64,000 nt of DNA. Source: Clostridia bacterium. GTDB taxonomy: Bacteria; Bacillota; Clostridia; Christensenellales; CAG-138. Under the pieces are notes generated by a model. That model did not search any database. It saw nothing but the letters and a program-made list of their open reading frames with translations, and was not told where the DNA came from. The stretch covers positions 154-64,153 of the forward strand of contig JAFXSG010000013.1 in NCBI GenBank assembly GCA_017525875.1, read 5' to 3'. A program made the translations under genes and the position numbers. Each line of letters starts with the position of its first letter. The stretch's first letter is position 1. Shown here one piece after another: positions 50,092-62,720 of the stretch.

Positions 50092-52721
50092 TTCAGAAGC
50101 TTAGCCCTCGAGCTTATTTCATAGAGTTTTGCCAGCGCTTCAAGCGGCGTCATGCGTTCAACGTCCATTTTGGAAAGATCTTTTAGGATCGCATCCCCCT
50201 CCCCGCTTCCGGGTTCCGCTCCGAGCAAACTCATTTGCTCGGATATTTCGTTGGAACCTACACGCTTTGCGGCATTGTTTATGTCTGATTCTTCAAGCTC
50301 GGAAAGTATCTTTTTTGCCCTTTCAACCAGTTCGTCGGGAAGGCCGGCAAGCTTTGCTACCTGGATCCCGAAGCTCTTATCCGCTCCTCCGCGAACGATC
50401 TTGCGAAGGAAGATGATCGTGTCTCCGATCTCTTTAACGGAAATGCGGTAATTCTTAACCCCGGCAAGCTTGCCCTCAAGTTCGGTGAGCTCGTGATAAT
50501 GCGTTGCGAACAGCGCTTTAGCGCCGCACTTGTAGGTATCGGCGATGTACTCAAGCACCGCCCAAGCGATGCTGAGGCCGTCGAACGTGCTCGTTCCGCG
50601 GCCTATCTCATCGAGGATAAGTAAGCTCCTGCTCGTTGCGTTGTTGAGTATGTTGGCCATTTCGCTCATCTCGACCATGAACGTGCTTTGGCCGGTCGAT
50701 AGACTGTCCGACGCGCCGACGCGGGTGAAGATCCGGTCTGTAATGCATATATCGGCCTTCTTAGCCGGCACGAACGAGCCGATGTGCGCCATCAGTGTGA
50801 TAAGCGCCACCTGGCGCATATAGGTGCTCTTGCCGGCCATATTCGGCCCGGTGAGGATGATAAGGCGGTCGCCGGCCATATTCATCTCGGTGGAGTTCGG
50901 TATAAACGCGTCGCTCATGCTCAGCTCCACAACCGGATGCCGACCGTCGACGATGTTGATCCTGCCCTTGCTGTTGATCCTCGGGCGGCAGTACTTGTTA
51001 TCCGCAGCGACCTTCGCTAGAGAATACAGCGCGTCAAGCTCCGCTATAAGCTCAGCGTTTTGCTTGAGTCGGTCAAGGCATTCGAGCAGCTTTTCGCGGA
51101 TCTCGTTGAACAGGGTACACTCAAGCGTTGTGCAGCGATCCTTTGCGCTGAGAAGCTTTTCTTCGGTATCCTTAAGTTGAGGCGTGACGTAACGCTCCGC
51201 ATTCGCAAGCGTCTGCTTGCGCTGATATTCCATCGGAACGCTTCCGATAAATGATTTCGATACCTCGATATAGTACCCGAAAACGCGGTTGTAGCCAACC
51301 TTGAGCGTTCTTATTCCGGTGCGTTCGCGTTCCGCTGTTTCGAAATCCTCGATCCATTTCTTGCCGTTCTCCGCAAGATCGCGCAGCTCGTCCACTTCCG
51401 CATTGAAGCCCGTTCGGATAACGCCGCCGTCCCTTGCGGAGACAGGTGCATCGGGCGATATCGCCTCAAGCAGGAGCTTGCTTGTATCGTCCATCGGGTC
51501 AAGATGATCCGCGATGTACGCCGTACGCCTTCGCTCGAAGCACAGCGTTATCAAAACAAGGTTCGGAATGACCGAAAGCGTCGACCTGAGCGCTATGCAG
51601 TCCCTCGGCGTCACGGTGCCGTATGCGATTCGGCTGACGAGCCTTTCGATATCATAGACCTTTGAAAGGTTCGATGCCAGCACTTCGCGTTCGTTATTGG
51701 CAAGGAATATTGCGTCAACGGCGTCAAGTCGGTCGTTGATCTCGCTCTCGATCTGCAGCGGCTGCTCGATCCAACGGCGAAGGAGCCTTCCGCCCATCGC
51801 CGTTTCCGTCTTGTCAAGAACGTTCAAGAGTGTGTATTTTTTATTCCCATCGAAGCGTATCGGTTCCGTCAGCTCGAGATTATGCCTCGTCGTAGCATCG
51901 AGGCACATGTACTCGCTTCTAATCACCCTGACGATGCGTTTGATATGGATGAGCGCGTTCTTCTGAGTGTCTTCAAGGTAGCGCAGCAGCGCGCCGGGAG
52001 CCGCGATATCAAAGCTGTTGTCGCGGATACCGAAACCCGAGAGCGTTGCAACTTTGAAATGGCTTGTGAGCCTTTCCTGCGCCCGCGCGATGTCGAAGCT
52101 GCGCTGCTCGGCCTGTTCGGTGTAGAACTTGTTCTTGATGCGTTTAGCAAGGAGCTCATCGGAGAAAACGAGCTCATGCGCGATTATCTCGCGCGGCGAT
52201 ATGCGCACGAGTTCATTGTAAAGATCGTTTGAAGAGTTGGCTCCGTCAAGAGTAAAAGCGTAGAATTCACCCGTAGAAACGTCGCAGTACGCAACGCCGA
52301 AAGCCAGACCGCTGCCGCTCTTCTTTGCGGAGATGGCGGCAATGTAGCTGTTTTTCTTGTCATCCAGCATCTGCTCCTCTATAACGGTGCCCGGAGTTAT
52401 AACGCGGATAACGTCGCGCTCAACCAGCCCCTGCGCAAGCGCCGGGTCGGTAAGCTGCTCGCAAATCGCCACCTTATAGCCTTTTTCGATCAGTCTTGTT
52501 ATATAGCTGTTGACGGAATGATAAGGCACGCCGCACATCGGCGCGCGCTCCGAAAGACCGCAGTCCCTGCCTGTCAAGGTAAGTTCAAGCTCCTTTGAAG
52601 CGGTCTTCGCATCCTCAAAGAACATTTCATAAAAATCGCCGAGGCGGAAGAAAAGCAGGCAGTCGCTGTACTTTTCCTTCATCTCGAGATATTGCTGCAT
52701 CATCGGAGTAAGGCTCGCCAT
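50088..52721 (-). CDS. mutS: DNA mismatch repair protein MutS
   Basis: TPMMQQYLEMKEKY, FYEMFFEDA, the Walker A TGPNMAGKSTYMRQ, DEIGRGTSTFDG, THYHEL. Confidence 0.97.
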   Translation of the reverse strand: MASLTPMMQQYLEMKEKYSDCLLFFRLGDFYEMFFEDAKTASKELELTLTGRDCGLSERAPMCGVPYHSVNSYITRLIEKGYKVAICEQLTDPALAQGLVERDVIRVITPGTVIEEQMLDDKKNSYIAAISAKKSGSGLAFGVAYCDVSTGEFYAFTLDGANSSNDLYNELVRISPREIIAHELVFSDELLAKRIKNKFYTEQAEQRSFDIARAQERLTSHFKVATLSGFGIRDNSFDIAAPGALLRYLEDTQKNALIHIKRIVRVIRSEYMCLDATTRHNLELTEPIRFDGNKKYTLLNVLDKTETAMGGRLLRRWIEQPLQIESEINDRLDAVDAIFLANNEREVLASNLSKVYDIERLVSRIAYGTVTPRDCIALRSTLSVIPNLVLITLCFERRRTAYIADHLDPMDDTSKLLLEAISPDAPVSARDGGVIRTGFNAEVDELRDLAENGKKWIEDFETAERERTGIRTLKVGYNRVFGYYIEVSKSFIGSVPMEYQRKQTLANAERYVTPQLKDTEEKLLSAKDRCTTLECTLFNEIREKLLECLDRLKQNAELIAELDALYSLAKVAADNKYCRPRINSKGRINIVDGRHPVVELSMSDAFIPNSTEMNMAGDRLIILTGPNMAGKSTYMRQVALITLMAHIGSFVPAKKADICITDRIFTRVGASDSLSTGQSTFMVEMSEMANILNNATSRSLLILDEIGRGTSTFDGLSIAWAVLEYIADTYKCGAKALFATHYHELTELEGKLAGVKNYRISVKEIGDTIIFLRKIVRGGADKSFGIQVAKLAGLPDELVERAKKILSELEESDINNAAKRVGSNEISEQMSLLGAEPGSGEGDAILKDLSKMDVERMTPLEALAKLYEISSRAKLLK

Positions 52722-52722
52722 G

Positions 52723-54129
52723 TCATGCCTCCGTCTTTACGATATGTCCGTAAAGCGAATTGAAGCGAAGCCCGTCCACCTTGACCGGAACGAACGAACC
52801 TATCAGGCTCTTATCGCCTTCAACGTACACCATTTTAAAGTTTGACAGTTTGCCGAAAAGCAAAGGCTCCCCTCTGTGATCGACCCCTTCAACGAGGATG
52901 TCCCCTTCAAAGCCGATGTATTTCTCGTTATTTGCGGGGAAAGTCGAGGCCAGCACGGCATTCAGCCTGTTCAGTCTTTCCTTCTTTACCTCTTCCGGGA
53001 TCTGGTCTTCACGCGCCGCGGCGATAGTTCCTTCGCGCGGCGAATATGCAAAAGTGTATGCGTTTGCATAGCCAACGCTGCGCACAAGCTCGCAGGTCGA
53101 TTCAAAGTCTTCTTCGGTTTCTCCCGGGAAGCCGACGATGATGTCGGTCGTGAGCTCCACGTTCAGAACAGCGGCACGAAGCTTTTCAACCAGCAGCATA
53201 TAATCCGCGGTAGTATAGCGCCGGTTCATCAGCTTAAGGATCCTGTCGCTGCCGGATTGAACCGGCAGATGGATATGCTTGCATACGCGGTCGAGCTCCG
53301 CCATGGCAAGGATCAGCTCATCCGAAAGATCCTTCGGATGGGAAGTCATAAAGCGAAGACGCTTGAGTTCTGGCACCTCGTCGTGCACGAGCCTCAGAAG
53401 CTGCGGGAATGTCATGCCGTCGTAATTGTACGAATTTACGTTTTGTCCAAGGAGCGTGACCTCGGAATAACCCTCGGCGACAACTTCCCGGACTTCGCGA
53501 ACGATATCCTCGGGCTTTCTCGAGCGTTCACGCCCGCGGACGTACGGAACTATGCAGTAGGTGCAGAAATTGTTGCAGCCGTACATGATGTTTACGAACG
53601 TCGCAAACCCCGGCGCGCGCTCGACAGGCAGCCCTTCGATAACTTCACCGTCTGATTCCGTAACGCGGAAAATCCTCTCCTGCTCATCAAGCAGTTTTTC
53701 AAGCATTGACGGGAAATTTTTGAGTTCGTGCGTGCCAAAGACGAGGTCCACGAACGGGAAACGGGAAAACAGCCTCTTTGCAACTTCCTTCTGCTGCATC
53801 ATACAGCCGCATACGCCGAGTATAAGCCTCGGGTTGAGCTGCTTGAGTTCTTTTATAAACCCTACGTTGCCGAAAGTGCGTTTTTCGGCGTGTTCCCGAA
53901 CACAGCAAGTGTTGAAAATTATGATGTCCGCCTCATTCTTTGTCTCGGCTTTAGTGTAACCTGCGCGTACGAGCATCCCGGCCAGCTTTTCGGAATCGTG
54001 CTCGTTCATCTGGCAGCCATAGGTCTCGATATAGTATTTCAGGTTCATGCCATGGGTTTTCGCTTCGATCCTGTCGAGCGTTTCGAGGCAGAGCCGGAGA
54101 TCGTTTTCACCGAATTCGGTTCTTTCCAT
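52723..54129 (-). CDS. miaB: tRNA-i6A37 methylthiotransferase
   Basis: YIETYGCQMNEHDSE, the radical SAM CNNFCTYCIVP, and a C-terminal TRAM domain. ATG 54129 has gaagga upstream; the internal ATG 54048 lacks an SD. Confidence 0.93.
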   Translation of the reverse strand: MERTEFGENDLRLCLETLDRIEAKTHGMNLKYYIETYGCQMNEHDSEKLAGMLVRAGYTKAETKNEADIIIFNTCCVREHAEKRTFGNVGFIKELKQLNPRLILGVCGCMMQQKEVAKRLFSRFPFVDLVFGTHELKNFPSMLEKLLDEQERIFRVTESDGEVIEGLPVERAPGFATFVNIMYGCNNFCTYCIVPYVRGRERSRKPEDIVREVREVVAEGYSEVTLLGQNVNSYNYDGMTFPQLLRLVHDEVPELKRLRFMTSHPKDLSDELILAMAELDRVCKHIHLPVQSGSDRILKLMNRRYTTADYMLLVEKLRAAVLNVELTTDIIVGFPGETEEDFESTCELVRSVGYANAYTFAYSPREGTIAAAREDQIPEEVKKERLNRLNAVLASTFPANNEKYIGFEGDILVEGVDHRGEPLLFGKLSNFKMVYVEGDKSLIGSFVPVKVDGLRFNSLYGHIVKTEA

Positions 54130-54161
54130 ACGGTTTTCCTTCTTTATAATTTTGCACAGAG

Positions 54162-54190
54162 ATTATACACGAAACGGGGCAAATTGGCAA
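54162..54190 (-). promoter_or_regulatory. Putative miaB-mutSL operon promoter
   Basis: On the minus strand: ttgcca, 17-nt spacer, tataat, with an extended -10 TG. Confidence 0.5.
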
Positions 54191-54206
54191 CAGTTTTCGG
54201 AATCTG

Positions 54207-55589
54207 TCAACTCGTTTCATCGGGCTGAGGAGGCTTGACGCGAACCGATAAAGTATCAAATCCGGGTAGCGAAAACCGAAGAATATTGTCGGATAATTTG
54301 ACTTTCCTTATGATCGAACGGATAAAGTACTGCTGCTCGCAACGTGAAAGCTGCCCGATCACGGAAAAGTGTTCGAAATATTCGCGAATATGCTCCTCTT
54401 GGATGCCGAATTCGCGTTTCTTATAACGCAGATAATCAAGGCATATCTTTTCGAGTTCAAGCTCCGCTCTGTCCCTTTCAAGCTCGGAGAACGCTTTGCC
54501 GTATGGAAGCTCATGCCTCGAATCATACTTTCTGCGGAATGATCCCATTCGGTCGATGTAATCGGACTCGGCGGCAGTTTGCTTGGCAGAATACTTTATA
54601 TACTCATTTCTCGCTCCGGCGATACATTTCTCGATCAACACCGGCAGAACGGTCTTCAGTTTTCGGTCCATAGTGTTTATAAGCGCAGTTTCGATCTGAT
54701 CCGCGCGGAAACAAACGCCATCCTGTTCAGCGGATCGATACACGAGAAGTCTGAGACCGTTTCTTTCCCTGTACGGATATAGTTTTATGCCGTTATCATA
54801 CTCAATGAACTGAAAAAGAGGCGCGTCGGCGTCGATGTCTTTACTCCGTTTTTCGTTCAAAGCAGCGCATTTAAGCCAGACGTTCATCGGTACTATCGGC
54901 GGGTATGCGCTTTTACTTTCTGTCTGAACTCCCGCATAGACTTTGTTTTTGACCAATGAATAAAGCTGGCTGAGCGAAGGACATAGCTCAGCAGGGAATT
55001 TTTTGACTATTGCTTCCCCGATCTCTTTCAAAGTCTTCCCTTGTGAATATGCGAAGAATACGTATTTGATCATCTCCGCTGCTTCTCTTTTAATTATAAT
55101 CGTTCCGTCGACGTTCTCATATCCGAATACGGTCCTGCCTGCTGTCGGCCGTTCGTCCGACTGCTTTTGAGGTCTGAATTCGGCTTCCCATTCGCCTCCG
55201 ACGGAGTAATAATCGTTTATTGCGATTATGTAGCGCTCCGTCGCGGAAATTGCAGGCTGTTTTTTCAGGCTGATAACCGCTGCTCCCTTCAGCTCAAGCA
55301 GGTGCATCATCGCTTCGCGGGTTATTCCGTCGCTGTCAAAGCACTCCGGGCTCTGAACAAGAATCGAAGAGGCCCTGTCAAGCGCTGCCGACCTCATCAG
55401 ATTGAGTAATGAATACGGCGGCCCGTACGGTTTGTCAAATATAGCCTCGCTGATTTCAAGCCCGAGTTTTTGAGCGTGATCTCCAAGCTCCGCTTTGGCG
55501 ATTTCGCCTTCCTCAAGCGAACTGCATCGAATATACGCGATCGTTTTCTTTAACGTTGTTTCAGTTGTTTTATGTGGCTGTGCCGGCAA
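54207..55589 (-). CDS. Large serine recombinase-like protein with degenerate catalytic and zinc-ribbon motifs
   Basis: TTG start after aggaga. The N-terminus is resolvase-like (IAYIRCSSLEE). A recombinase domain (VFGYENVDGTIIIKREAAEMIKYVFFAYSQGKTLKEIGEAI) and a coiled-coil C-terminus follow. The conserved DRLxR arginines and the CxxC pairs are not seen. Confidence 0.7.
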   Translation of the reverse strand: MPAQPHKTTETTLKKTIAYIRCSSLEEGEIAKAELGDHAQKLGLEISEAIFDKPYGPPYSLLNLMRSAALDRASSILVQSPECFDSDGITREAMMHLLELKGAAVISLKKQPAISATERYIIAINDYYSVGGEWEAEFRPQKQSDERPTAGRTVFGYENVDGTIIIKREAAEMIKYVFFAYSQGKTLKEIGEAIVKKFPAELCPSLSQLYSLVKNKVYAGVQTESKSAYPPIVPMNVWLKCAALNEKRSKDIDADAPLFQFIEYDNGIKLYPYRERNGLRLLVYRSAEQDGVCFRADQIETALINTMDRKLKTVLPVLIEKCIAGARNEYIKYSAKQTAAESDYIDRMGSFRRKYDSRHELPYGKAFSELERDRAELELEKICLDYLRYKKREFGIQEEHIREYFEHFSVIGQLSRCEQQYFIRSIIRKVKLSDNILRFSLPGFDTLSVRVKPPQPDETS

Positions 55590-55613
55590 TTGCGGTCTCC
55601 TGTCAAAATGTAT

Positions 55614-56876
55614 TCATCTGCTTATACCGCGGCGGGCTGCCGCTATCTCTTTCGATAATCTGGTTTCATCAACGGAAAGTATCTTCCGGTCCTTCATCAG
55701 GATCCTTCCTCGTGACACGGTATGGATGCAGGCTCTTCCCGACGCAAAGCGTGTCAGCATATCGATGATGCTGTCAGCATCATTACAGCACTGAGCGCCC
55801 GCGTCAAGAACGATCACGTCGGCCGAAGCTCCGGGAGCCAGGCTGCCCATTCGGCAGTTGAACAGCCTGCCCGCAAATGAAGGATTCTCTTTGAGAAGTG
55901 CTTTAACACCGGCTCCGGTGCTGCAATGCCCGCGCACAGAAGAGTAAAACTCCTCATTGCGAACCGCTTCGAGCATATCGGAGGAGGCTGTGCCTGTGCC
56001 TATAAAAACGTTTACAGATTTATTGCAAAGCTCTTCGGTGCTAAGGCACGGAACTCCCACGCTAACGTCCGCAGCAGAAGCCAGCGCGATCGATGCGCCG
56101 TTTGAACGAATGAGCTCAACGTCATCCGGGGTGGTTTCCCCGCAAGCACAGATAATCGTTTTGTCATTAAGAAGTCCGAATTCCGCAAGCCTTTCGACTG
56201 CAGACTCTTTATTTACGGGATCATTTCCTGTTTTTGCATTCAGCCGCACTGTAAAACCCGAATCAGCCGGTGCGGCGGCCCTGATAAGATGAAGCGCAAA
56301 ATCGGATTGCTCCGATACCGGGCCTATGCCAAAGGACGCGGCAACGGACGGGTTCTTATAATAACCGCAGTATCTGATAAAATCCACGTTTTCATCAGAT
56401 GCGGCGCGCATTCTTGCGGAGCCGGGAAGCTCGCTGGTTTCAAAGCTCAAACAGCACCTGACGCCTGTTTCACCATATGCAGCGTACATCGTCTGAAGAG
56501 TTCCGGCCGGATCGTTTGGCACGAAAGCGGAGTCGAATACTGTTGTAACGCCGTTTCTGATACATTGAAGAGCAGCCGCGTATGCCCCATATTTTACTGT
56601 GTCGAGGTTCAGCCGCTTATCAAAAGCAAGCTGCGTGCTTCCGCGGGTCCCGGCGGGTCTCATTAGAGCTCTGCTTTGCATTCGCATATTTACGAGACCG
56701 GGCATAATGATCCCACCGTGTGCGTCAAGCAGTTCAGCGCCGCTGTACTGCATGAGGATGGTTTCGCACGGGCCGGTCGCTATGATCGACTCACCGTCGA
56801 TGGCTATCGCGCCATTAGTAAACGGCGGACAGTTTTCATCCATTGTCAGAACGGTGCCATTATGAATAACCAACAT
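55614..56876 (-). CDS. Amidohydrolase-fold protein (chlorohydrolase/deaminase-like) lacking the canonical metal ligands
   Basis: Fold markers MLVIHNGTVLTMD, AIAIDGESI, IIMPGLVN and GSLAPGASADVIVLD are present. The HxH position reads MRM and the GTD position reads GTG. Confidence 0.75.
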   Translation of the reverse strand: MLVIHNGTVLTMDENCPPFTNGAIAIDGESIIATGPCETILMQYSGAELLDAHGGIIMPGLVNMRMQSRALMRPAGTRGSTQLAFDKRLNLDTVKYGAYAAALQCIRNGVTTVFDSAFVPNDPAGTLQTMYAAYGETGVRCCLSFETSELPGSARMRAASDENVDFIRYCGYYKNPSVAASFGIGPVSEQSDFALHLIRAAAPADSGFTVRLNAKTGNDPVNKESAVERLAEFGLLNDKTIICACGETTPDDVELIRSNGASIALASAADVSVGVPCLSTEELCNKSVNVFIGTGTASSDMLEAVRNEEFYSSVRGHCSTGAGVKALLKENPSFAGRLFNCRMGSLAPGASADVIVLDAGAQCCNDADSIIDMLTRFASGRACIHTVSRGRILMKDRKILSVDETRLSKEIAAARRGISR

Positions 56877-56894
56877 ATTTCGTTTCCGTATTGA

Positions 56895-57767
56895 TCAGGT
56901 ATTGCCGAGCAGCTTATCGCGCATATGCTGTACTGAGGTCTTAATGAATTCTTTATTAGTCGGTTTGCCTCGGGAAGCGTCGATCGAGTTCCCGAAAAGG
57001 GAAAATTGCAAATATGGGCTCCCCTTCTCCCAAGCTCTTTCAATTGCATAGCGAATTGTTTTTTCAACGGCATAGGGGCTTGTTTTATACGTTTCGGCTA
57101 TGCACGAATACAATAGGTCGAGTCTGTCCGGAGCCCCGAGAAACTGCATCGTTATTATGCTCTCAAGGTACTTTGTGCCCCTGAGCGACGGGTCAAACCC
57201 GAGCGGCGTCAGGATAGCTTCAATCAGCACATTTTGGAGCGAGTTTTTGAACGCGCTGTCATAAAAATTGAAATTGTTGTCTATGAAGCTGCGAAGCGAA
57301 CGAAGTGAATTATCGGCTTTGTTACGGGCGTATTCGCTGTATTTAGTGTACACGCACATCGCGGTTTGGGCAATATCGTCGCCAAATGCGGCAGCGGCGT
57401 CAAATCCCTCCGTTTCCGTTATCCGCTCGATCGATCTGTCCATCTTCGGGCAGCATAAGAAAAACCTGATATCGGTGCTGTAACTCATCCTGCGAAGACT
57501 GTTCACAAGAGAGATCGCATTGGCGTCGGGTAAAGTCAGGCTTATCACGATAACGTCGGGTATCGCGGTTATAAGGTGCTTCCAGATATCGCAGCCGCGC
57601 CTGACGGGCTCGGGCGTGCAAAAGAACTTGCTGAGTTCCGCGCACAAAGCTTCAGCGTAATCGGAATGTTCACCCTTATAAGGAGTATCGAGAGGGACAC
57701 TTTCGCATAAAACAAGAGCGTAAGGCATAACGTTCGCAGCCTTATTTGTTCCTGATCTTTCTGCCAT
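56895..57767 (-). CDS. Spo0A C-terminal (DNA-binding) domain protein with a degenerate receiver-like N-terminus
   Basis: The C-terminus LRGTKYLESII...TSPYAVEKTIRYAIERAWEKGS...LFGNSIDASRGKPTNKEFI parallels Spo0A HIKGYLYLREAI...RVERAIRHAIEVAW...KPTNSEFI. The N-terminus PDVIVISLTLPD parallels [12 protein letters not shown], with Asp replaced by Ser. Confidence 0.8.
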   Translation of the reverse strand: MAERSGTNKAANVMPYALVLCESVPLDTPYKGEHSDYAEALCAELSKFFCTPEPVRRGCDIWKHLITAIPDVIVISLTLPDANAISLVNSLRRMSYSTDIRFFLCCPKMDRSIERITETEGFDAAAAFGDDIAQTAMCVYTKYSEYARNKADNSLRSLRSFIDNNFNFYDSAFKNSLQNVLIEAILTPLGFDPSLRGTKYLESIITMQFLGAPDRLDLLYSCIAETYKTSPYAVEKTIRYAIERAWEKGSPYLQFSLFGNSIDASRGKPTNKEFIKTSVQHMRDKLLGNT

Positions 57768-57794
57768 AAAGCGGTCCCTCCCTAAAGAGTTTGA

Positions 57795-59165
57795 TTATCT
57801 GAGACCGTATTTTTCACCGCCGTACTCATCGTTAAGCACGGTGCTTCCAAGCTGATTGAGATCGCCAATTGTGATATCTATCGTGATCGTTTCGCCGTCG
57901 CGGAAGACGGTCAGCTTGACAACGTCGCCCAAGGATTTGGTGCTTATGTAGTGGCCGAGGGATTCGCTGTCCGGAATGTCCGTATCATCGGCCTTTATAA
58001 TGATATCGTCAACGTGCAGTCCGGCAAGGTGACCCGGTCCGTCTTCAAGGATCGAATAGACGAGTGCGCCGACGGGTATATCGTATTTGGCTGCAGTGTC
58101 CTCGTCGATAACGATCGTCGAGATGCCGATACCGGGGCGAACGATACTTCCGTTTTCGATAATGGCGCGGGCGGTCTCCAGCGCAGTATTGATCGGGATG
58201 GCAAAGCCAAGCCCTTCCGCGCTGATCGCTTCTCCGTTTTCATCATAGCTTGCGATCACTGTCTTTGCGGAGTTGACGCCGATAACGCGGCCGTTCATAT
58301 CAAAAAGCGGGCCGCCGCTGTTGCCGGGGTTGATGGCGGCGTCGACCTGTATGTAGCTGTTGCGCATGCCGTCGATTATGACGCTGCGATTGACTGCACC
58401 CACCATGCCGAACGTTGCCGTGAAGCTGAGCTCGTCCCCGGTCGGATGACCGATCGCAAATACGAAATCACCGGTTTGGACCGCTGAAGAATCGCCCGTC
58501 TCAAGCACTTTCAGAAGCGATGCGTCCTTGACCTTCAGCACTGCGATATCGGTGCGCACATCTTTGCCTATAAGCGAAGCGTCCAATGTTTTGCCGTTGT
58601 ACGTTACCGCCTGATATGTGTCAGCGTCCTCAACGACGTGAGCGTTGGTTATGATACATCCGTTATCGGAAATGCAGAATCCGGTTCCCGTCCCAACAAG
58701 GTTCGAAAGCCTTGCTTTGCCATTGTAGCTTTGGACGACCACAACGCCCGTAACGTTGTTTTTATAGATCTCGGGTATGTTGTTCACGAAGGAGCCGGGT
58801 TCGCCGCCCTGATTACCGCTCGGAGTTTCCCGCGGTACCGGCGTCGGTATCGTGTCGTCAACGGGAGGCGTCGGCTGTTCCTGCTGCTGACCGCTGTTGC
58901 CGCGCAGCGCGTCGGCGATCGATCTGATCCCCGCAAACCTGGCGAAAAAGATCATGCTGGCGATCAGCGCTCCGATAAGGAGAAAAACGACAGCTGTGAG
59001 GATTATCGTCCCTGCCGCGGGAACTTTCTTCTGGATGATCGTTGTTTCGCTGTGCGTGCCGTTATCGTCGTGCCAGATAACGTTCTTTTGCATATCCCCG
59101 TCCTCGTTGTATGAGTATTTTGATTCGGAGTACATATCGACTCCGCTGCCGTTGTTAGTCTTCAT
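57795..59165 (-). CDS. htrA: Membrane-anchored S1C (HtrA/DegP family) serine protease with a PDZ domain
   Basis: A TM helix, then the catalytic triad contexts TNAHVV, DIAVLKV and GNSGGPL, and a C-terminal PDZ domain. Confidence 0.92.
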   Translation of the reverse strand: MKTNNGSGVDMYSESKYSYNEDGDMQKNVIWHDDNGTHSETTIIQKKVPAAGTIILTAVVFLLIGALIASMIFFARFAGIRSIADALRGNSGQQQEQPTPPVDDTIPTPVPRETPSGNQGGEPGSFVNNIPEIYKNNVTGVVVVQSYNGKARLSNLVGTGTGFCISDNGCIITNAHVVEDADTYQAVTYNGKTLDASLIGKDVRTDIAVLKVKDASLLKVLETGDSSAVQTGDFVFAIGHPTGDELSFTATFGMVGAVNRSVIIDGMRNSYIQVDAAINPGNSGGPLFDMNGRVIGVNSAKTVIASYDENGEAISAEGLGFAIPINTALETARAIIENGSIVRPGIGISTIVIDEDTAAKYDIPVGALVYSILEDGPGHLAGLHVDDIIIKADDTDIPDSESLGHYISTKSLGDVVKLTVFRDGETITIDITIGDLNQLGSTVLNDEYGGEKYGLR

Positions 59166-59202
59166 TTGATCCTCTGATCCTCCATATAGTCGTTTTTGTT
59201 TG

Positions 59203-59886
59203 TCAGATCACAGAAAACCTGTATCCGACCCCATACACCGTTTCGATCCTCCAAAGCTTGCTGCTGCCGAGCTTGGTTCGGAGTCTGTTTATATGAACGT
59301 CCAGCGTGCGGCTCGAACTGCTGCGGCAGTTTTCAAACAGATCGCTTAAGATCCGGTCCCTGCGTATTACGCTGTTGCGGTTCACGATAAGGTAAAGCAG
59401 CAGCTCGAACTCCTTGTCCGGAAGGGGTATGATCTCATCCCCTGTTTTGACTGTATGGCCGTTCAGGTCCAGTTCAAGGCCGCATGCCGAAACGCAGCTG
59501 ACGTGTTTTGGAAGCTGTCTTCCGCAGCGGCGGAGCACCGCTCTGATCCTTGCAACAAGCTCCTTCGGGCTGAACGGCTTTGTGATGTAATCGTCCGCTC
59601 CGCCGTCAAGTCCGCGGATACGGTCCTCCGCGGTCCCCTTTGCGCTGAGGAATATGACGGGGATATTGCTGAATCTGCGAAGCCGCTCGAGTATTTCGTA
59701 CCCGCTCATTCCGGGAAGATTTATATCGAGTATAACAAGATGCGGACTGCAGTCCGAAAAAGCGGAAAGAGCGTTGCCGCCGTTTCGGCAGCAAGTGACC
59801 TCATAGCCTTTGCTGCGGAGATACAGTGTCAGGATCTGGCAGATTTTTTCATCGTCATCTACAACGAGGATTCGTTCGCTCTCCAT
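59203..59886 (-). CDS. OmpR/PhoB family response regulator
   Basis: ILVVDDDE, LVILDINLPGMSG and KPF receiver motifs, then a winged-helix C-terminus (LDVHINRLRTKL...YGVGYRF). Confidence 0.93.
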   Translation of the reverse strand: MESERILVVDDDEKICQILTLYLRSKGYEVTCCRNGGNALSAFSDCSPHLVILDINLPGMSGYEILERLRRFSNIPVIFLSAKGTAEDRIRGLDGGADDYITKPFSPKELVARIRAVLRRCGRQLPKHVSCVSACGLELDLNGHTVKTGDEIIPLPDKEFELLLYLIVNRNSVIRRDRILSDLFENCRSSSSRTLDVHINRLRTKLGSSKLWRIETVYGVGYRFSVI

Positions 59887-59904
59887 AATCCGTATCTCCT
59901 ACAA

Positions 59905-60357
59905 TTACAGCGATCTCACTTTGATCCCGCTTTGAGAAAGCAGCGCGGCAGCAACGCCGTTGCCTTCTTTCCTGGCTCCGCTGAAAGTGCCGTCATAGAT
60001 CGTTCCGAAGCCGCATGAGGGACTGTTTGCTTTCAGTATGGCTTCATCCGCGCCAACTTCGCGGGCGATCCTCAGCGCTTCCTCTGCTCCCTTCAAAAAC
60101 GCGTCGGTAACGTCGAACCGCACTTCGCCGTCCGACGCGATAACGCGGGCTTTGCCGCAAAGCACGTCTTCTCCGCTCCCGCCTTCGATCTCCGCGGGAA
60201 CTCGCGGAGTCGGCAGTCCGCCCATGCATTCCGGGCAGACCGGCACAGCTTTTCCCGCAGCAACGAGCATAGCCGCAGTCTCGTTTGTCTGCGCTTTCCC
60301 GTCGTATCGGCATGGACCGCCTGCGAGGCAGGCGGAAACGATGATCTTCTTCTCCAT
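59905..60357 (-). CDS. DUF523 family protein (TudS-like Fe-S protein)
   Basis: IIVSACLAGGPCRYDG...PVCPECMGGLPTPR...SPSCG. The start overlaps the mutS2 stop (TAATG). Confidence 0.8.
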   Translation of the reverse strand: MEKKIIVSACLAGGPCRYDGKAQTNETAAMLVAAGKAVPVCPECMGGLPTPRVPAEIEGGSGEDVLCGKARVIASDGEVRFDVTDAFLKGAEEALRIAREVGADEAILKANSPSCGFGTIYDGTFSGARKEGNGVAAALLSQSGIKVRSL

Positions 60358-62720
60358 TACTTCAATGTGACGACCGTAACGCCGTAATCGCCTTCGCCGT
60401 AGTTTCCGTTGCGGAACGACTTAACGAGGCTGTGTTTCTTGAGGTAGGTCTGTATACCAGCGCGAAGCGCGCCGGTGCCCTTGCCGTGAATGATATTGAC
60501 CTCGGTCAATCCGTTCATGTGCGCGTCGAGAAGGTACTTGTCAACGAGCGGTATCGCCTCATCAACGAGTTTGCCGCGAATATCAAGCTCCAGCCCGACC
60601 GTGTTCTCCGGCCTGTACTCGACCTTGACGCTGACGCCCGTCTGCTTCTTTTCTCCGCTTGCGCGGATATCGCTGAGCTTTACGGACATTTTAATAATGC
60701 CGATCTGGATCTGAACGTCGCCGTTCTTATCGGGTCTTGCAAGCACCGTTGCGGGTTTTCCGAGGCTTATGACGTTCACAATGTCGCCGGGTTTAACGTC
60801 CTTCGGCGCTTTTCCGTCCGCCGTGGTGGGTTTTATGAGCTCATCCGCAAGCTCGCCCTCGGCTTTTCTCAGTGCATCGCGGTTCTTCTGAATGATCCTG
60901 TCCGCCTCACGCTGATCTATGCTCTTGATCTGTCGGATCTCAACGATGAGCTGTTCCATCTCACGGCGCGTTTCCGCAACAACTTTGCGCGCTTCCTCGC
61001 GCGCTTTCTGGCGGTACTCCGTTTTCTCTCGCTCGAGCTTTGCGCGCTCCAGGCGCAGCTCCTCAACGAGCTGATCGTGGACGAGCCTTGCCTGCTCCGC
61101 AAGCTCCATCTCTTCCTCCGCCTGCCGTTTCTTTGTTTCGGCGTCGGAGAGTATCGTCTCAAAATCGGTATTCTCTTTATCGATAAAGCCCCTCGCGGCT
61201 TCGATGATATGTTCGGAAAGCCCGAGTCTGCGGCTGATCTCAAAGGCGTTGGATTTGCCGGGGATACCGATAAACAGCCTGTAAGTCGGGCAGAGTTTAT
61301 CGATATCGAACTCCATCGAAGCGTTCTCCATGCCTTCATGCGTCAGTGCAAACGCTTTTATCTCGCTGTAATGCGTGGTCGCCGCCGTGAACGATCCCCG
61401 AGCGTGCAGATCCTCAAGGATGCTCATCGCAAGCGCGGCGCCTTCGATCGGGTCCGTACCCGCGCCGAGCTCGTCAAGCAGAACGAGCGAGCGCTCGTCC
61501 GCGCCGTCGAGAATGCCGACGATATTGCGCATATGGCTTGAAAAAGTGGAGAGTGATTGCTCGATGCTCTGCTCATCTCCGATATCGGCAAAAATGCTTT
61601 CAAATACGGAGACCTCCGAACCCACGTTTGCGGGAATAAACATACCGGACTGAGCCATCAGGGTGAAAAGGCCGGTGGTTTTGAGCGTTACAGTTTTGCC
61701 GCCCGTATTGGGACCGGTAACGATCAGCGTTCTGAAATCGGTACCGAGGCGGATATCGATCGGCACTACCTGATACGAAGGTATCAGCGGATGCCTTGCG
61801 CGGATCAGGTTGAGCCTGCCCTCGCAGTTGGTTTTCGGCATGACCGCCTTCATCTCTTTTGCAAGCTTTGCTTTGGCAAAAGCAAGATCGATCTTCCCGA
61901 GAAGGTAAAGATCTGAATAGATATCGTTCGCGGAGGGCTTTATCGCCGCCGTCAGTTCCGTGAGTATCCTTTCGACTTCCGCCTGTTCTTCGATCGTCAG
62001 CTTTTTGAATTCGTTGCCGAGTTCGACGACCGCCGCGGGTTCGATGAAAAGCGTCTGCCCGCTGCCGGACTGATCGTGGATGAGCCCCGGGATCATCTGG
62101 CGGTATTCCTGCTTTACGGGAACGACGAATCTGCCGTTGCGGATAGTGATCAAGGGATCCTGCAGGTATTTAGACTGTGTCTGCGAACGGATGATGCTGT
62201 TAAGCTTTTCCCTGACCCGCTCGTTGGCTATGCGCTTATCGCGGCGGATCCTCGCAAGCGCGGGCGAAGCGCCGTCAAAAAGATCATCCTCGCTGAGGAT
62301 GCAGCGGTTGATCTCGTCTTCAAGATAGCGGTGAGTGATCAGCCCGGAAGCCAGGTTCGCTATCACGCCCGGTTCGCCGCTTTCCACGGCCTGCGGAACG
62401 AGCTGCTCGCGCGCAACGCGTATCGCCTTAAGGCATTTTCCGATATTGAGCAGCTCCTCGCAGTTCAGGAAGAGCACCGCGTTCAAGCGCTTCAGCGCGG
62501 ATCGCATATCCGGGAAATCATCCACGGGTGTGTAGCCGGTCCGCAGGAAATAGCTCTCGGCCTCGCTCGTGAGGCGAAGATCGGCGTTTATCTCGTCAAG
62601 CTCCGTCCTGGGCTCGAGCTCATCCGCAAGCTCGCGGCTGATGCAGCAGCCCGCATGCTGGCGAAGCCGGGCAAGGATCTTGTCGTATTCAAGAGTTTTT
62701 AATACTTTTTTCGTTATCAT
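60357..62720 (-). CDS. mutS2: Endonuclease MutS2 (MutS domain V plus a C-terminal Smr domain)
   Basis: TGPNTGGKTVTLKT, LLDELGAGTDP, a long coiled-coil, and the Smr domain (LDIRGKLVDEA...IIHGKGTGALR). Confidence 0.95.
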   Translation of the reverse strand: MITKKVLKTLEYDKILARLRQHAGCCISRELADELEPRTELDEINADLRLTSEAESYFLRTGYTPVDDFPDMRSALKRLNAVLFLNCEELLNIGKCLKAIRVAREQLVPQAVESGEPGVIANLASGLITHRYLEDEINRCILSEDDLFDGASPALARIRRDKRIANERVREKLNSIIRSQTQSKYLQDPLITIRNGRFVVPVKQEYRQMIPGLIHDQSGSGQTLFIEPAAVVELGNEFKKLTIEEQAEVERILTELTAAIKPSANDIYSDLYLLGKIDLAFAKAKLAKEMKAVMPKTNCEGRLNLIRARHPLIPSYQVVPIDIRLGTDFRTLIVTGPNTGGKTVTLKTTGLFTLMAQSGMFIPANVGSEVSVFESIFADIGDEQSIEQSLSTFSSHMRNIVGILDGADERSLVLLDELGAGTDPIEGAALAMSILEDLHARGSFTAATTHYSEIKAFALTHEGMENASMEFDIDKLCPTYRLFIGIPGKSNAFEISRRLGLSEHIIEAARGFIDKENTDFETILSDAETKKRQAEEEMELAEQARLVHDQLVEELRLERAKLEREKTEYRQKAREEARKVVAETRREMEQLIVEIRQIKSIDQREADRIIQKNRDALRKAEGELADELIKPTTADGKAPKDVKPGDIVNVISLGKPATVLARPDKNGDVQIQIGIIKMSVKLSDIRASGEKKQTGVSVKVEYRPENTVGLELDIRGKLVDEAIPLVDKYLLDAHMNGLTEVNIIHGKGTGALRAGIQTYLKKHSLVKSFRNGNYGEGDYGVTVVTLK

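Follow-up and report, generated by a model that had tools for sequence, protein, structure and literature searches.

Gene and domain structure

The gene under study is located on the minus strand of a 64,000-nt stretch of contig JAFXSG010000013.1 (assembly GCA_017525875.1, a Clostridia bacterium of the order Christensenellales), and this whole stretch is referred to below as the window. The gene encodes a protein of 290 amino acid residues, designated here as the target, in which an N-terminal pseudo-receiver, a linker and a C-terminal Spo0A_C domain were deduced (Table 1). Based on profile searches, structure models and comparison with related genomes, the target is probably a functional, fast-evolving transcription factor of the Spo0A family, whose receiver lacks the phospho-acceptor aspartate (Asp-less receiver, ALR).

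The C-terminal region was matched by the Spo0A_C profile (Pfam PF08769) with 78.9 bits against a cut-off of 25 (E 3e-22), and the match covered model positions 1-103 of 104. The domain is therefore complete, in agreement with a preliminary description of the sequence, according to which this region tracks the effector domain of Spo0A. The C-domain structures of Spo0A were also found by phmmer (1fc3, E 1e-12; 1lq1, E 1e-11), and when the C-domain of the target was superposed on known structures by Foldseek, a template modeling (TM) score of 0.83 with a root-mean-square deviation of 1.8 Å was obtained for 1lq1_C, and a TM score of 0.75 for 1fc3_A, in keeping with the six-helix helix-turn-helix fold. 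With the Spo0A equivalog model (NCBIfam TIGR02875), the whole target reached 69.9 bits, below the cut-off of 200; therefore, it was regarded as a relative of Spo0A and not as a standard Spo0A.

To describe the DNA-reading residues, 29 members of the target family were tabulated. Glu235, Arg239, Tyr240, Gln254 and Lys268 were invariant (29/29 each), position 236 was occupied by Lys in 25 members and by Arg in four, and the GKPTN motif was invariant across the family. Positions 235, 236, 239 and 240 are taken here to be the equivalents of Glu213, Arg214, Arg217 and His218 in the recognition helix of Bacillus subtilis Spo0A, and if this numbering holds, the recognition surface for DNA would be fixed within the family yet would differ from the one in canonical Spo0A. 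No insertions or deletions relative to Spo0A lie between the recognition helix and the KPTN motif, and in the same assumed numbering the equivalents of Glu213, Arg217, Phe236, Gly237 and Lys246-Asn249 are kept.

The N-terminal domain was far more divergent. The target scored 12.1 bits with Response_reg (Pfam PF00072; E 0.23, cut-off 30.2), and E<1 was reached in just four of 22 family members, so that single-sequence searches against Pfam and the PDB were too weak alone, and a family profile and structure models were needed. When a profile built from 22 N-domain sequences was compared with the PDB, the matches were almost exclusively receivers (best E 5e-5). When it was aligned by hhalign with 18 Spo0A receivers of the same order, a probability of 95.3% (E 2e-8) was obtained over 122 columns, with an identity of 9%. 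Two AlphaFold models, with predicted local distance difference test (pLDDT) values of 72 and 77, had a (beta/alpha)5 fold over residues ~14-148, for which Foldseek returned the VicR, PhoB and PhoP receivers at TM scores of 0.81-0.85; HP1043 (2pln) and PhoB D10A/D53E (2jb9) were also among the structural matches. The receiver-like character of the N-terminal half, which had been proposed by eye, was borne out by the fold and by both kinds of comparison.

The exact counterparts of the catalytic residues were then read from the alignments. The position of the acceptor Asp (Asp56 in B. subtilis Spo0A) was assigned to Ser76 by the profile-versus-PDB and the hhalign alignments alike, and in the latter the first acidic residue, the Thr/Ser and the Lys corresponded to Cys21, Cys106 and Phe128, respectively. 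The earlier reading of a Ser at the acceptor position and of a lost phospho-acceptor pocket thus agreed with the alignments. The beta1-alpha1 loop carries an 11-residue insertion after Cys21. Across the 29 family members, the acceptor position was Ser in 21, Glu in five and Asp in three, the Thr/Ser position was Cys in 14 and Ala in nine, the conserved Lys was kept in only one, and the position of Glu22 was acidic in 20. Judged from these alignments and models, the N-terminal domain has a genuine receiver fold without a phospho-pocket, and the combination of a substituted Asp with an effector domain corresponds to the definition of an ALR protein.

It was considered whether Ser76 could be a new regulatory site, where phosphorylation by a Hanks-type Ser/Thr kinase, or some other modification, would have replaced His-Asp phosphotransfer. 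The Ser is shared by members that are otherwise only ~30-40% identical, and in the published census of ALRs, where Ser is the third-commonest replacement, the possibility of Ser modification was raised (PMC4395418). This explanation was nevertheless judged to be quite improbable, since the same census knows of no case in which the former Asp position is modified, Glu is found in one sub-clade and Asp in three members, and the Lys and Thr/Ser that would stabilize a phosphoryl group are absent.

Between the two domains, residues 158-170 of the linker had pLDDT values below 50, and the predicted TM score (pTM) of the whole models was 0.51-0.58. The mutual placement of the two domains is undefined in the models, and no statement about auto-inhibition was drawn from them.

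Table 1. Features of the target gene and of its neighbors in the window
Feature	Position	Strand	Basis
Whole gene, Spo0A-family protein (pseudo-receiver, linker, Spo0A_C); stop codon included	56895..57767	-	Open reading frame list of the window, Pfam and NCBIfam scans, dN/dS
Ribosome-binding site GGGAGGG, 8 nt 5' of the target ATG	57776..57782	-	Sequence reading
Pseudo-receiver (Asp-less receiver), residues about 14-150	57318..57728	-	AlphaFold, Foldseek, family profile versus PDB, hhalign
Ser76 codon AGC, phospho-acceptor position	57540..57542	-	Profile-versus-PDB and hhalign alignments
Inter-domain linker, residues 151-181, partly helical, low confidence	57225..57317	-	AlphaFold pLDDT
Spo0A_C DNA-binding and transcription-activation domain, residues 182-281	56925..57224	-	Pfam PF08769; genome profile search (C19:57078-57377); 1lq1_C match
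Recognition-helix region, residues 231-248 (SPYAVEKTIRYAIERAW)	57024..57077	-	Alignment to 1fc3 and 1lq1
Amidohydrolase-fold gene, 420 aa, downstream of the target	55614..56876	-	Pfam Amidohydro_1, 42.7 bits; synteny
Recombinase-like gene, 460 aa, family uncertain	54207..55589	-	Pfam Recombinase, 16 bits (cut-off 21.1)
HtrA-type serine protease with PDZ domain, upstream of the target	57795..59165	-	Pfam Trypsin_2, 125 bits; PDZ_2
OmpR-type response regulator, intact receiver	59203-59886	-	Pfam Response_reg, 107 bits

Selection and distribution of the target family

The ratio of nonsynonymous to synonymous substitution rates (dN/dS) of the target was 0.125 relative to a 98%-identical relative (L104) and 0.154 relative to a 75%-identical relative (L105), and intact orthologs were present in 14 of the 16 genomes of the same GTDB genus, the remaining two being incomplete assemblies. 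Therefore, the target is under purifying selection. Relative to L104, the closest relative, the dN/dS of mutS2 and htrA was 0.04-0.05, and that of the two genes downstream of the target was 0.28-0.46.

Divergence within the genus was high. The orthologs were 28-44% identical to the target, whereas MutS, MiaB and MutS2 encoded on the same contigs were 78-84% identical. As shown by the Spo0A_C tree, the terminal branches were 0.1-0.8 in the target family versus 0.00-0.06 for a second, conserved Spo0A copy of the same genomes (described below), and the DNA-binding domain of the target evolves at least 10 times faster than that of the conserved copy in the same genus. When 1.8 billion representative proteins were searched with the family profile, 32 clusters were recovered at E<=1e-30, and all the contigs that bear names were rumen or gut metagenome-assembled genomes (MAGs) labeled Christensenellaceae, Clostridia or Bacillota. 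With the N-domain profile at E<=1e-8, only three other genomes were found among 300 drawn evenly from the order. The family evolves fast and occurs almost only in a single genus of Christensenellales-like, uncultured Clostridia of the gut and rumen.

The very fast divergence and the loss of all catalytic receiver residues would also be seen in a non-functional relic, namely a decaying spo0A duplicate without a role. This explanation is disfavored and hardly credible, given the dN/dS of 0.13-0.15, the persistence of intact open reading frames across the genus, the many invariant DNA-binding residues and the strong ribosome-binding site.

In three genomes of the genus, namely G005 (L096), G008 (L097) and G009 (L098), the open frame of the target family was 513-519 aa long with an N-terminus extended by ~230 residues, the start codons being putative. 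The extension of the G009 protein starts with a hydrophobic, membrane-anchor-like stretch.

Spo0A lineages and loss of the acceptor Asp

The contigs of the source genome were searched with the Spo0A_C profile, and three genes were found: the target, the C52 copy and the C15 gene. The C52 copy (L001 1447-2250, minus strand, 267 aa) scored 135-137 bits with Spo0A_C and 72 bits with Response_reg, so the target is not the sole spo0A-like gene of the genome. The target had been described at first as a paralog beside an authentic, phosphorylatable Spo0A, and this part of the description was not supported. The C52 copy reads ADGN...DVLVTELVMP, in which the acceptor is Glu and Asp-Gly (DG) replaces Asp-Asp (DD), and the same Glu and DG type was found in all 14 genus genomes read, as well as in G021, G018 and G041. 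The arrangement DD...LD was kept in two other genera of the same taxonomic family and in 11 other families of the order. The C15 gene (L003 1405-1833, plus strand, 142 aa; Spo0A_C 34 bits) has no receiver and a degenerate KPTN motif, and it adjoins a SpoVT gene (SpoVT_C 136 bits) in divergent orientation. An acceptor Asp was therefore found in none of the three Spo0A_C genes. The source genome encodes SpoIVA, two SpoVAC/AEB, SpoIVB, SpoIIGA and SpoVT, and core sporulation genes are therefore present.

Short Spo0A_C copies similar to the C15 gene were observed in most genomes of the genus, with scores of 33-53 bits.

Across the order, two Spo0A lineages were distinguished: lineage A, located directly after spoIVB, and lineage B, for which no locus read showed spoIVB as a neighbor. 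The order spoIVB - A - phosphopentomutase-type metalloenzyme gene was observed in several genomes. Lineage B, to which the C52 copy belongs, formed a clade with a support of 100/100 nested among the A sequences. The target's family in the genus of the window (T) and a sister clade (T2; P0005, P0024 and G021) were united in the Spo0A_C tree with a support of 99/94. According to Pfam annotation of three T2 loci (L013, L014 and L100), the order is SMC_N (RecN-like) - Peptidase_S55 (SpoIVB) - T2 - Metalloenzyme, and the same slot is occupied in sister genera by spoIVB-linked copies that bear the Asp. No other spoIVB-linked copy of the A type was found in the genomes with T or T2. When T+T2 and the A copies of the taxonomic family were constrained to one clade, this arrangement was not rejected by the approximately unbiased (AU) test (p 0.3).

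In the source genome itself, the classical recN-spoIVB-spo0A order is broken. Its spoIVB (C15, L107; 427 aa, Peptidase_S55 253 bits) converges on a RecN-like gene and is followed by no spo0A, and the target lies between the htrA-type and amidohydrolase-like genes; that it is located away from the usual spoIVB context had been seen correctly from the start. Since T2 occupies the spoIVB slot and the C52 copy belongs to the unlinked lineage B, the target lineage is more likely to be the descendant of the original spo0A locus. On the evidence of synteny and of a short, long-branched alignment, we lean toward the view that T and T2 have descended, with divergence, from the ancestral spo0A linked to spoIVB, and that the gene has moved in the genus of the window. 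Synteny and the domain tree also suggest that the strongly conserved C52 copy represents an older duplicate lineage unlinked to spoIVB.

The loss of the Asp was correlated between the two lineages. In each genome read with a Glu-type B copy (the 14 genus genomes, G021, G018 and G041), there was an A-lineage gene without the Asp: the acceptor was Ser, Glu or rarely Asp in T, and Asn in the G018 copy. In T2, sequences read by eye had Glu, Met, Asn or Pro at this position. An Asp-type lineage B was found also in G020, G022, G023 and G024, and all genomes with an Asp-type B keep the Asp in A (G017, G019, G020, G022, G023 and G024). This pattern suggests that the phosphorylation input to Spo0A may have been abandoned as a whole in a clade that comprises the genus of the window and at least three neighboring lineages. 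Because these genomes are kin, the correlated loss may represent a single event. The number of HisKA genes was 3-8 per genus genome and 2-21 in other families, in a genome draw that did not include the Asp-type sister genera.

These observations can be joined into a wider proposal: with both Spo0A lineages devoid of a phosphorylatable Asp in a clade whose genomes retain SpoIVA, SpoIIGA, SpoIVB, SpoVAC/AEB and SpoVT, His-Asp phosphotransfer would have ceased to control the entry into sporulation (or into its replacement), the target would represent the re-purposed ancestral Spo0A, and Ser76 and the pseudo-receiver would form a new input module, operated by partner binding or Ser phosphorylation. 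As a whole, this proposal is possible but tentative.

Genomic context, proposed mode of action and related proteins

The target belongs to a string of minus-strand genes in the order mutS2, DUF523-like, OmpR-type regulator, htrA, target, amidohydrolase-fold, recombinase-like, miaB and mutS. The whole order was repeated in G001 and G015, and the target together with one or both of the downstream genes recurred in G003, G004, G010 and G013; in other genus members, the contexts were unrelated. In the amidohydrolase-fold gene, which accompanies the target in seven genus members, the expected HxH metal motif reads M-R-M, and its identity was 26-29% in members where mutS, miaB and mutS2 were 78-84% identical. 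The recombinase-like gene was syntenic in G001, G015, G013 and G010, with 23-26% identity. A recombinase-like neighbor had been noted previously, and the gene is indeed present in the string, but its score with Pfam Recombinase was just 16 bits, below the cut-off of 21.1, and the assignment to that family was not secured.

The target could also be viewed as the regulator of a mobile cassette, domesticated or in decay, that comprises the Spo0A-like gene and its amidohydrolase-like and recombinase-like neighbors; it would then have no relation to the ancestral spo0A locus and might stem from a phage. At least five genus genomes carry the three genes together, their context is not always the same, each of them evolves much faster than the flanks, and Spo0A_C-only genes were found on phage-labeled fecal contigs. 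We consider this view very improbable, given that no intact recombinase domain was found, that the sister clade T2 sits in the chromosomal spoIVB slot, and that housekeeping genes, whose order is conserved, lie on the flanks. Moreover, the matches in the phage database were to the C-domain only, at 31-38% identity on unannotated fecal contigs and with no full-length relative, and a phage origin was rejected as the main explanation.

The target is separated from the stop codon of the htrA-like gene by 27 nt, and no dedicated promoter was found in this gap. The best promoter-like sites on the minus strand were located before mutS2 and before miaB, and no strong terminator was found on this strand from 62720 to 54207. 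The target is probably co-transcribed with the upstream htrA-type gene; co-transcription of the whole string is suggested, although not proven, by the same features. The htrA-target string is headed by the OmpR-type regulator, and inspection of positions 52000-62720 revealed no gene for a histidine kinase.

The likeliest function of the target would be that of a phosphorylation-independent transcription factor acting at a 0A-box-like site. The protein would accept no phosphate from a histidine kinase or a phosphorelay and would bind a 0A-box-like site through its helix-turn-helix without phosphorylation. Its binding specificity may be shifted by Lys in place of Arg214 and Tyr in place of His218, in what we take to be the B. 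subtilis numbering. Its activity would be set by the level of expression, probably within the gene string from mutS2 to the recombinase-like gene. The pseudo-receiver may act as a constitutive module through which the protein dimerizes or binds a partner, in line with other receivers that lack the Asp (PMC4395418). Previous studies have shown that the isolated C-domain of Spo0A binds its legitimate targets without phosphorylation in Bacillus and Clostridioides difficile (PMC3485338).

A related explanation is that the target acts upon the conserved C52 copy, as an antagonist at the same 0A boxes or as a partner in heterodimers formed through the alpha4-beta5-alpha5 face of the receiver, and thereby modulates the entry into sporulation; competition with Spo0A had been suggested in the preliminary description. 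In Streptomyces, the atypical regulator WhiI forms heterodimers with BldM. Every genus genome read encodes the two proteins, the recognition helix still has its base-contacting Glu and Arg, and the receiver fold persists under selection. This explanation was nevertheless considered unlikely, as the changes of the recognition helix that are invariant in the family (Lys236, Tyr240 and Gln254) favor a distinct site over identical competition, and the profile alignment gave an identity of only 9% between their N-domains.

Several observations weigh against a phosphorylation-independent regulator derived from the ancestral Spo0A, which is nevertheless the reading preferred here. Regulators with a fixed regulon do not usually evolve so fast in their DNA-binding domain, and 0A boxes (TGTCGAA) were not enriched in the window (10 found versus 11.6 expected). 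The pTM values are uninformative on whether the N-domain inhibits the C-domain, and a purely "dead" pocket does not account for how strongly Ser is conserved at the acceptor position. Furthermore, the domain tree comprised ~106 columns with long branches and did not resolve the placement of T and T2 relative to the spoIVB-linked lineage, and a non-rejecting AU test is no proof that T, T2 and A share one clade. By inspection of the upstream regions of six family members, only anecdotal TTTGTCG-like words were found.

The known protein closest in architecture is Spo0A, the master regulator of sporulation initiation in B. subtilis, Geobacillus stearothermophilus and C. difficile. The target shares its two-domain architecture and length class, and its Spo0A_C domain is complete. 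In contrast to Spo0A, the target lacks the acceptor Asp, the acidic pair, the Thr and the Lys, and although the sister clade T2 is found directly after spoIVB, the target itself is not in the source genome. Constitutively active receiver mutants, namely the Spo0A-Sad67 deletion and PhoB D10A/D53E (2jb9), provide a second comparison; in these laboratory mutants, the loss or replacement of receiver residues leads to phosphorylation-independent output. The lineage-B C52 gene (DD to DG, Asp to Glu) is the natural equivalent of such mutants. The replacement of Asp by Glu alone is, however, often insufficient for constitutive activity, and Spo0A is among the examples cited (PMC4395418).

The ALR regulators HP1043, ChxR, RitR, CmrT and AmiR likewise combine a receiver fold, in which the Asp is replaced, with a DNA-binding output. 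ALRs act without His-Asp phosphotransfer, and Ser is a common replacement (PMC4395418). Most of them keep the Lys (70%) and the Thr/Tyr coupling pair (PMC4395418), both of which were lost in the target family. The target differs from the named ALRs also in its output domain, which is Spo0A_C, and in a receiver too divergent for Pfam. In the ALR census of 2015, seven ALRs were counted among 391 Response_reg~Spo0A_C proteins, none of them characterized (PMC4395418). In a survey of Clostridiales, 10 genomes with two copies of spo0A and one with three were reported (Galperin et al., bioRxiv 10.1101/2022.02.25.481979), whereas Asp-less copies, a split into spoIVB-linked and unlinked copies, or fast-evolving copies were not described there.

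Both spo0A paralogs and, as a line of the census, Asp-less Response_reg~Spo0A_C proteins were thus already known. In the literature on Asp-less or pseudo-receiver Spo0A, only that line (7/391) and a general mention of spo0A paralogs were found, and no characterized case. No published description was found of a Spo0A-type family with a receiver too degenerate for Pfam, of rapid divergence alongside fixed DNA-reading residues in such a family, of an Asp-less family that probably arose from the spoIVB-linked locus, or of a joint loss of the Asp from the two Spo0A lineages where core sporulation genes are present.

In the textbook view, endospore formation is decided by the phosphorylation of Spo0A, and so is transmission from host to host in gut Clostridia. 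Although core sporulation genes are present in the source genome, none of its three Spo0A-type proteins is predicted to be able to take a phosphoryl group on Asp. If this is true, it would represent a natural system in which the control of sporulation has been rewired away from two-component signaling, a first functional handle on the uncharacterized ALR-Spo0A_C proteins, and a worked example of the degeneration of the ancestral copy after duplication of a master regulator. For annotation pipelines and predictors of "sporulation potential", caution is advised, given that the presence of spo0A does not equal a switch controlled by a phosphorelay.

Other Spo0A_C proteins were encountered in the searches. 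A separate, widespread Spo0A-like family of ~250 aa was found in rumen and gut MAGs (L017, L018, L021, L025, L028, L030, L031, L035, L036, L039-L042, L044 and L046-L051); its N-terminus reads MLTPWRLYIASPDA..., and its C-domain AVE(K/R)AIRTAVE.TWL. It keeps the acceptor Asp without the acidic pair and formed its own clade (support 100/95). Stand-alone Spo0A_C proteins of 109-117 aa without a receiver were encoded in some related genomes (L024, L038 and L124 of G027) directly after a spoIVB-like gene, which was identified by its GxSGSP motif only. Finally, three proteins of 428-454 aa without a receiver (P0023, P0025 and P0031) consisted of three or four tandem Spo0A_C domains.

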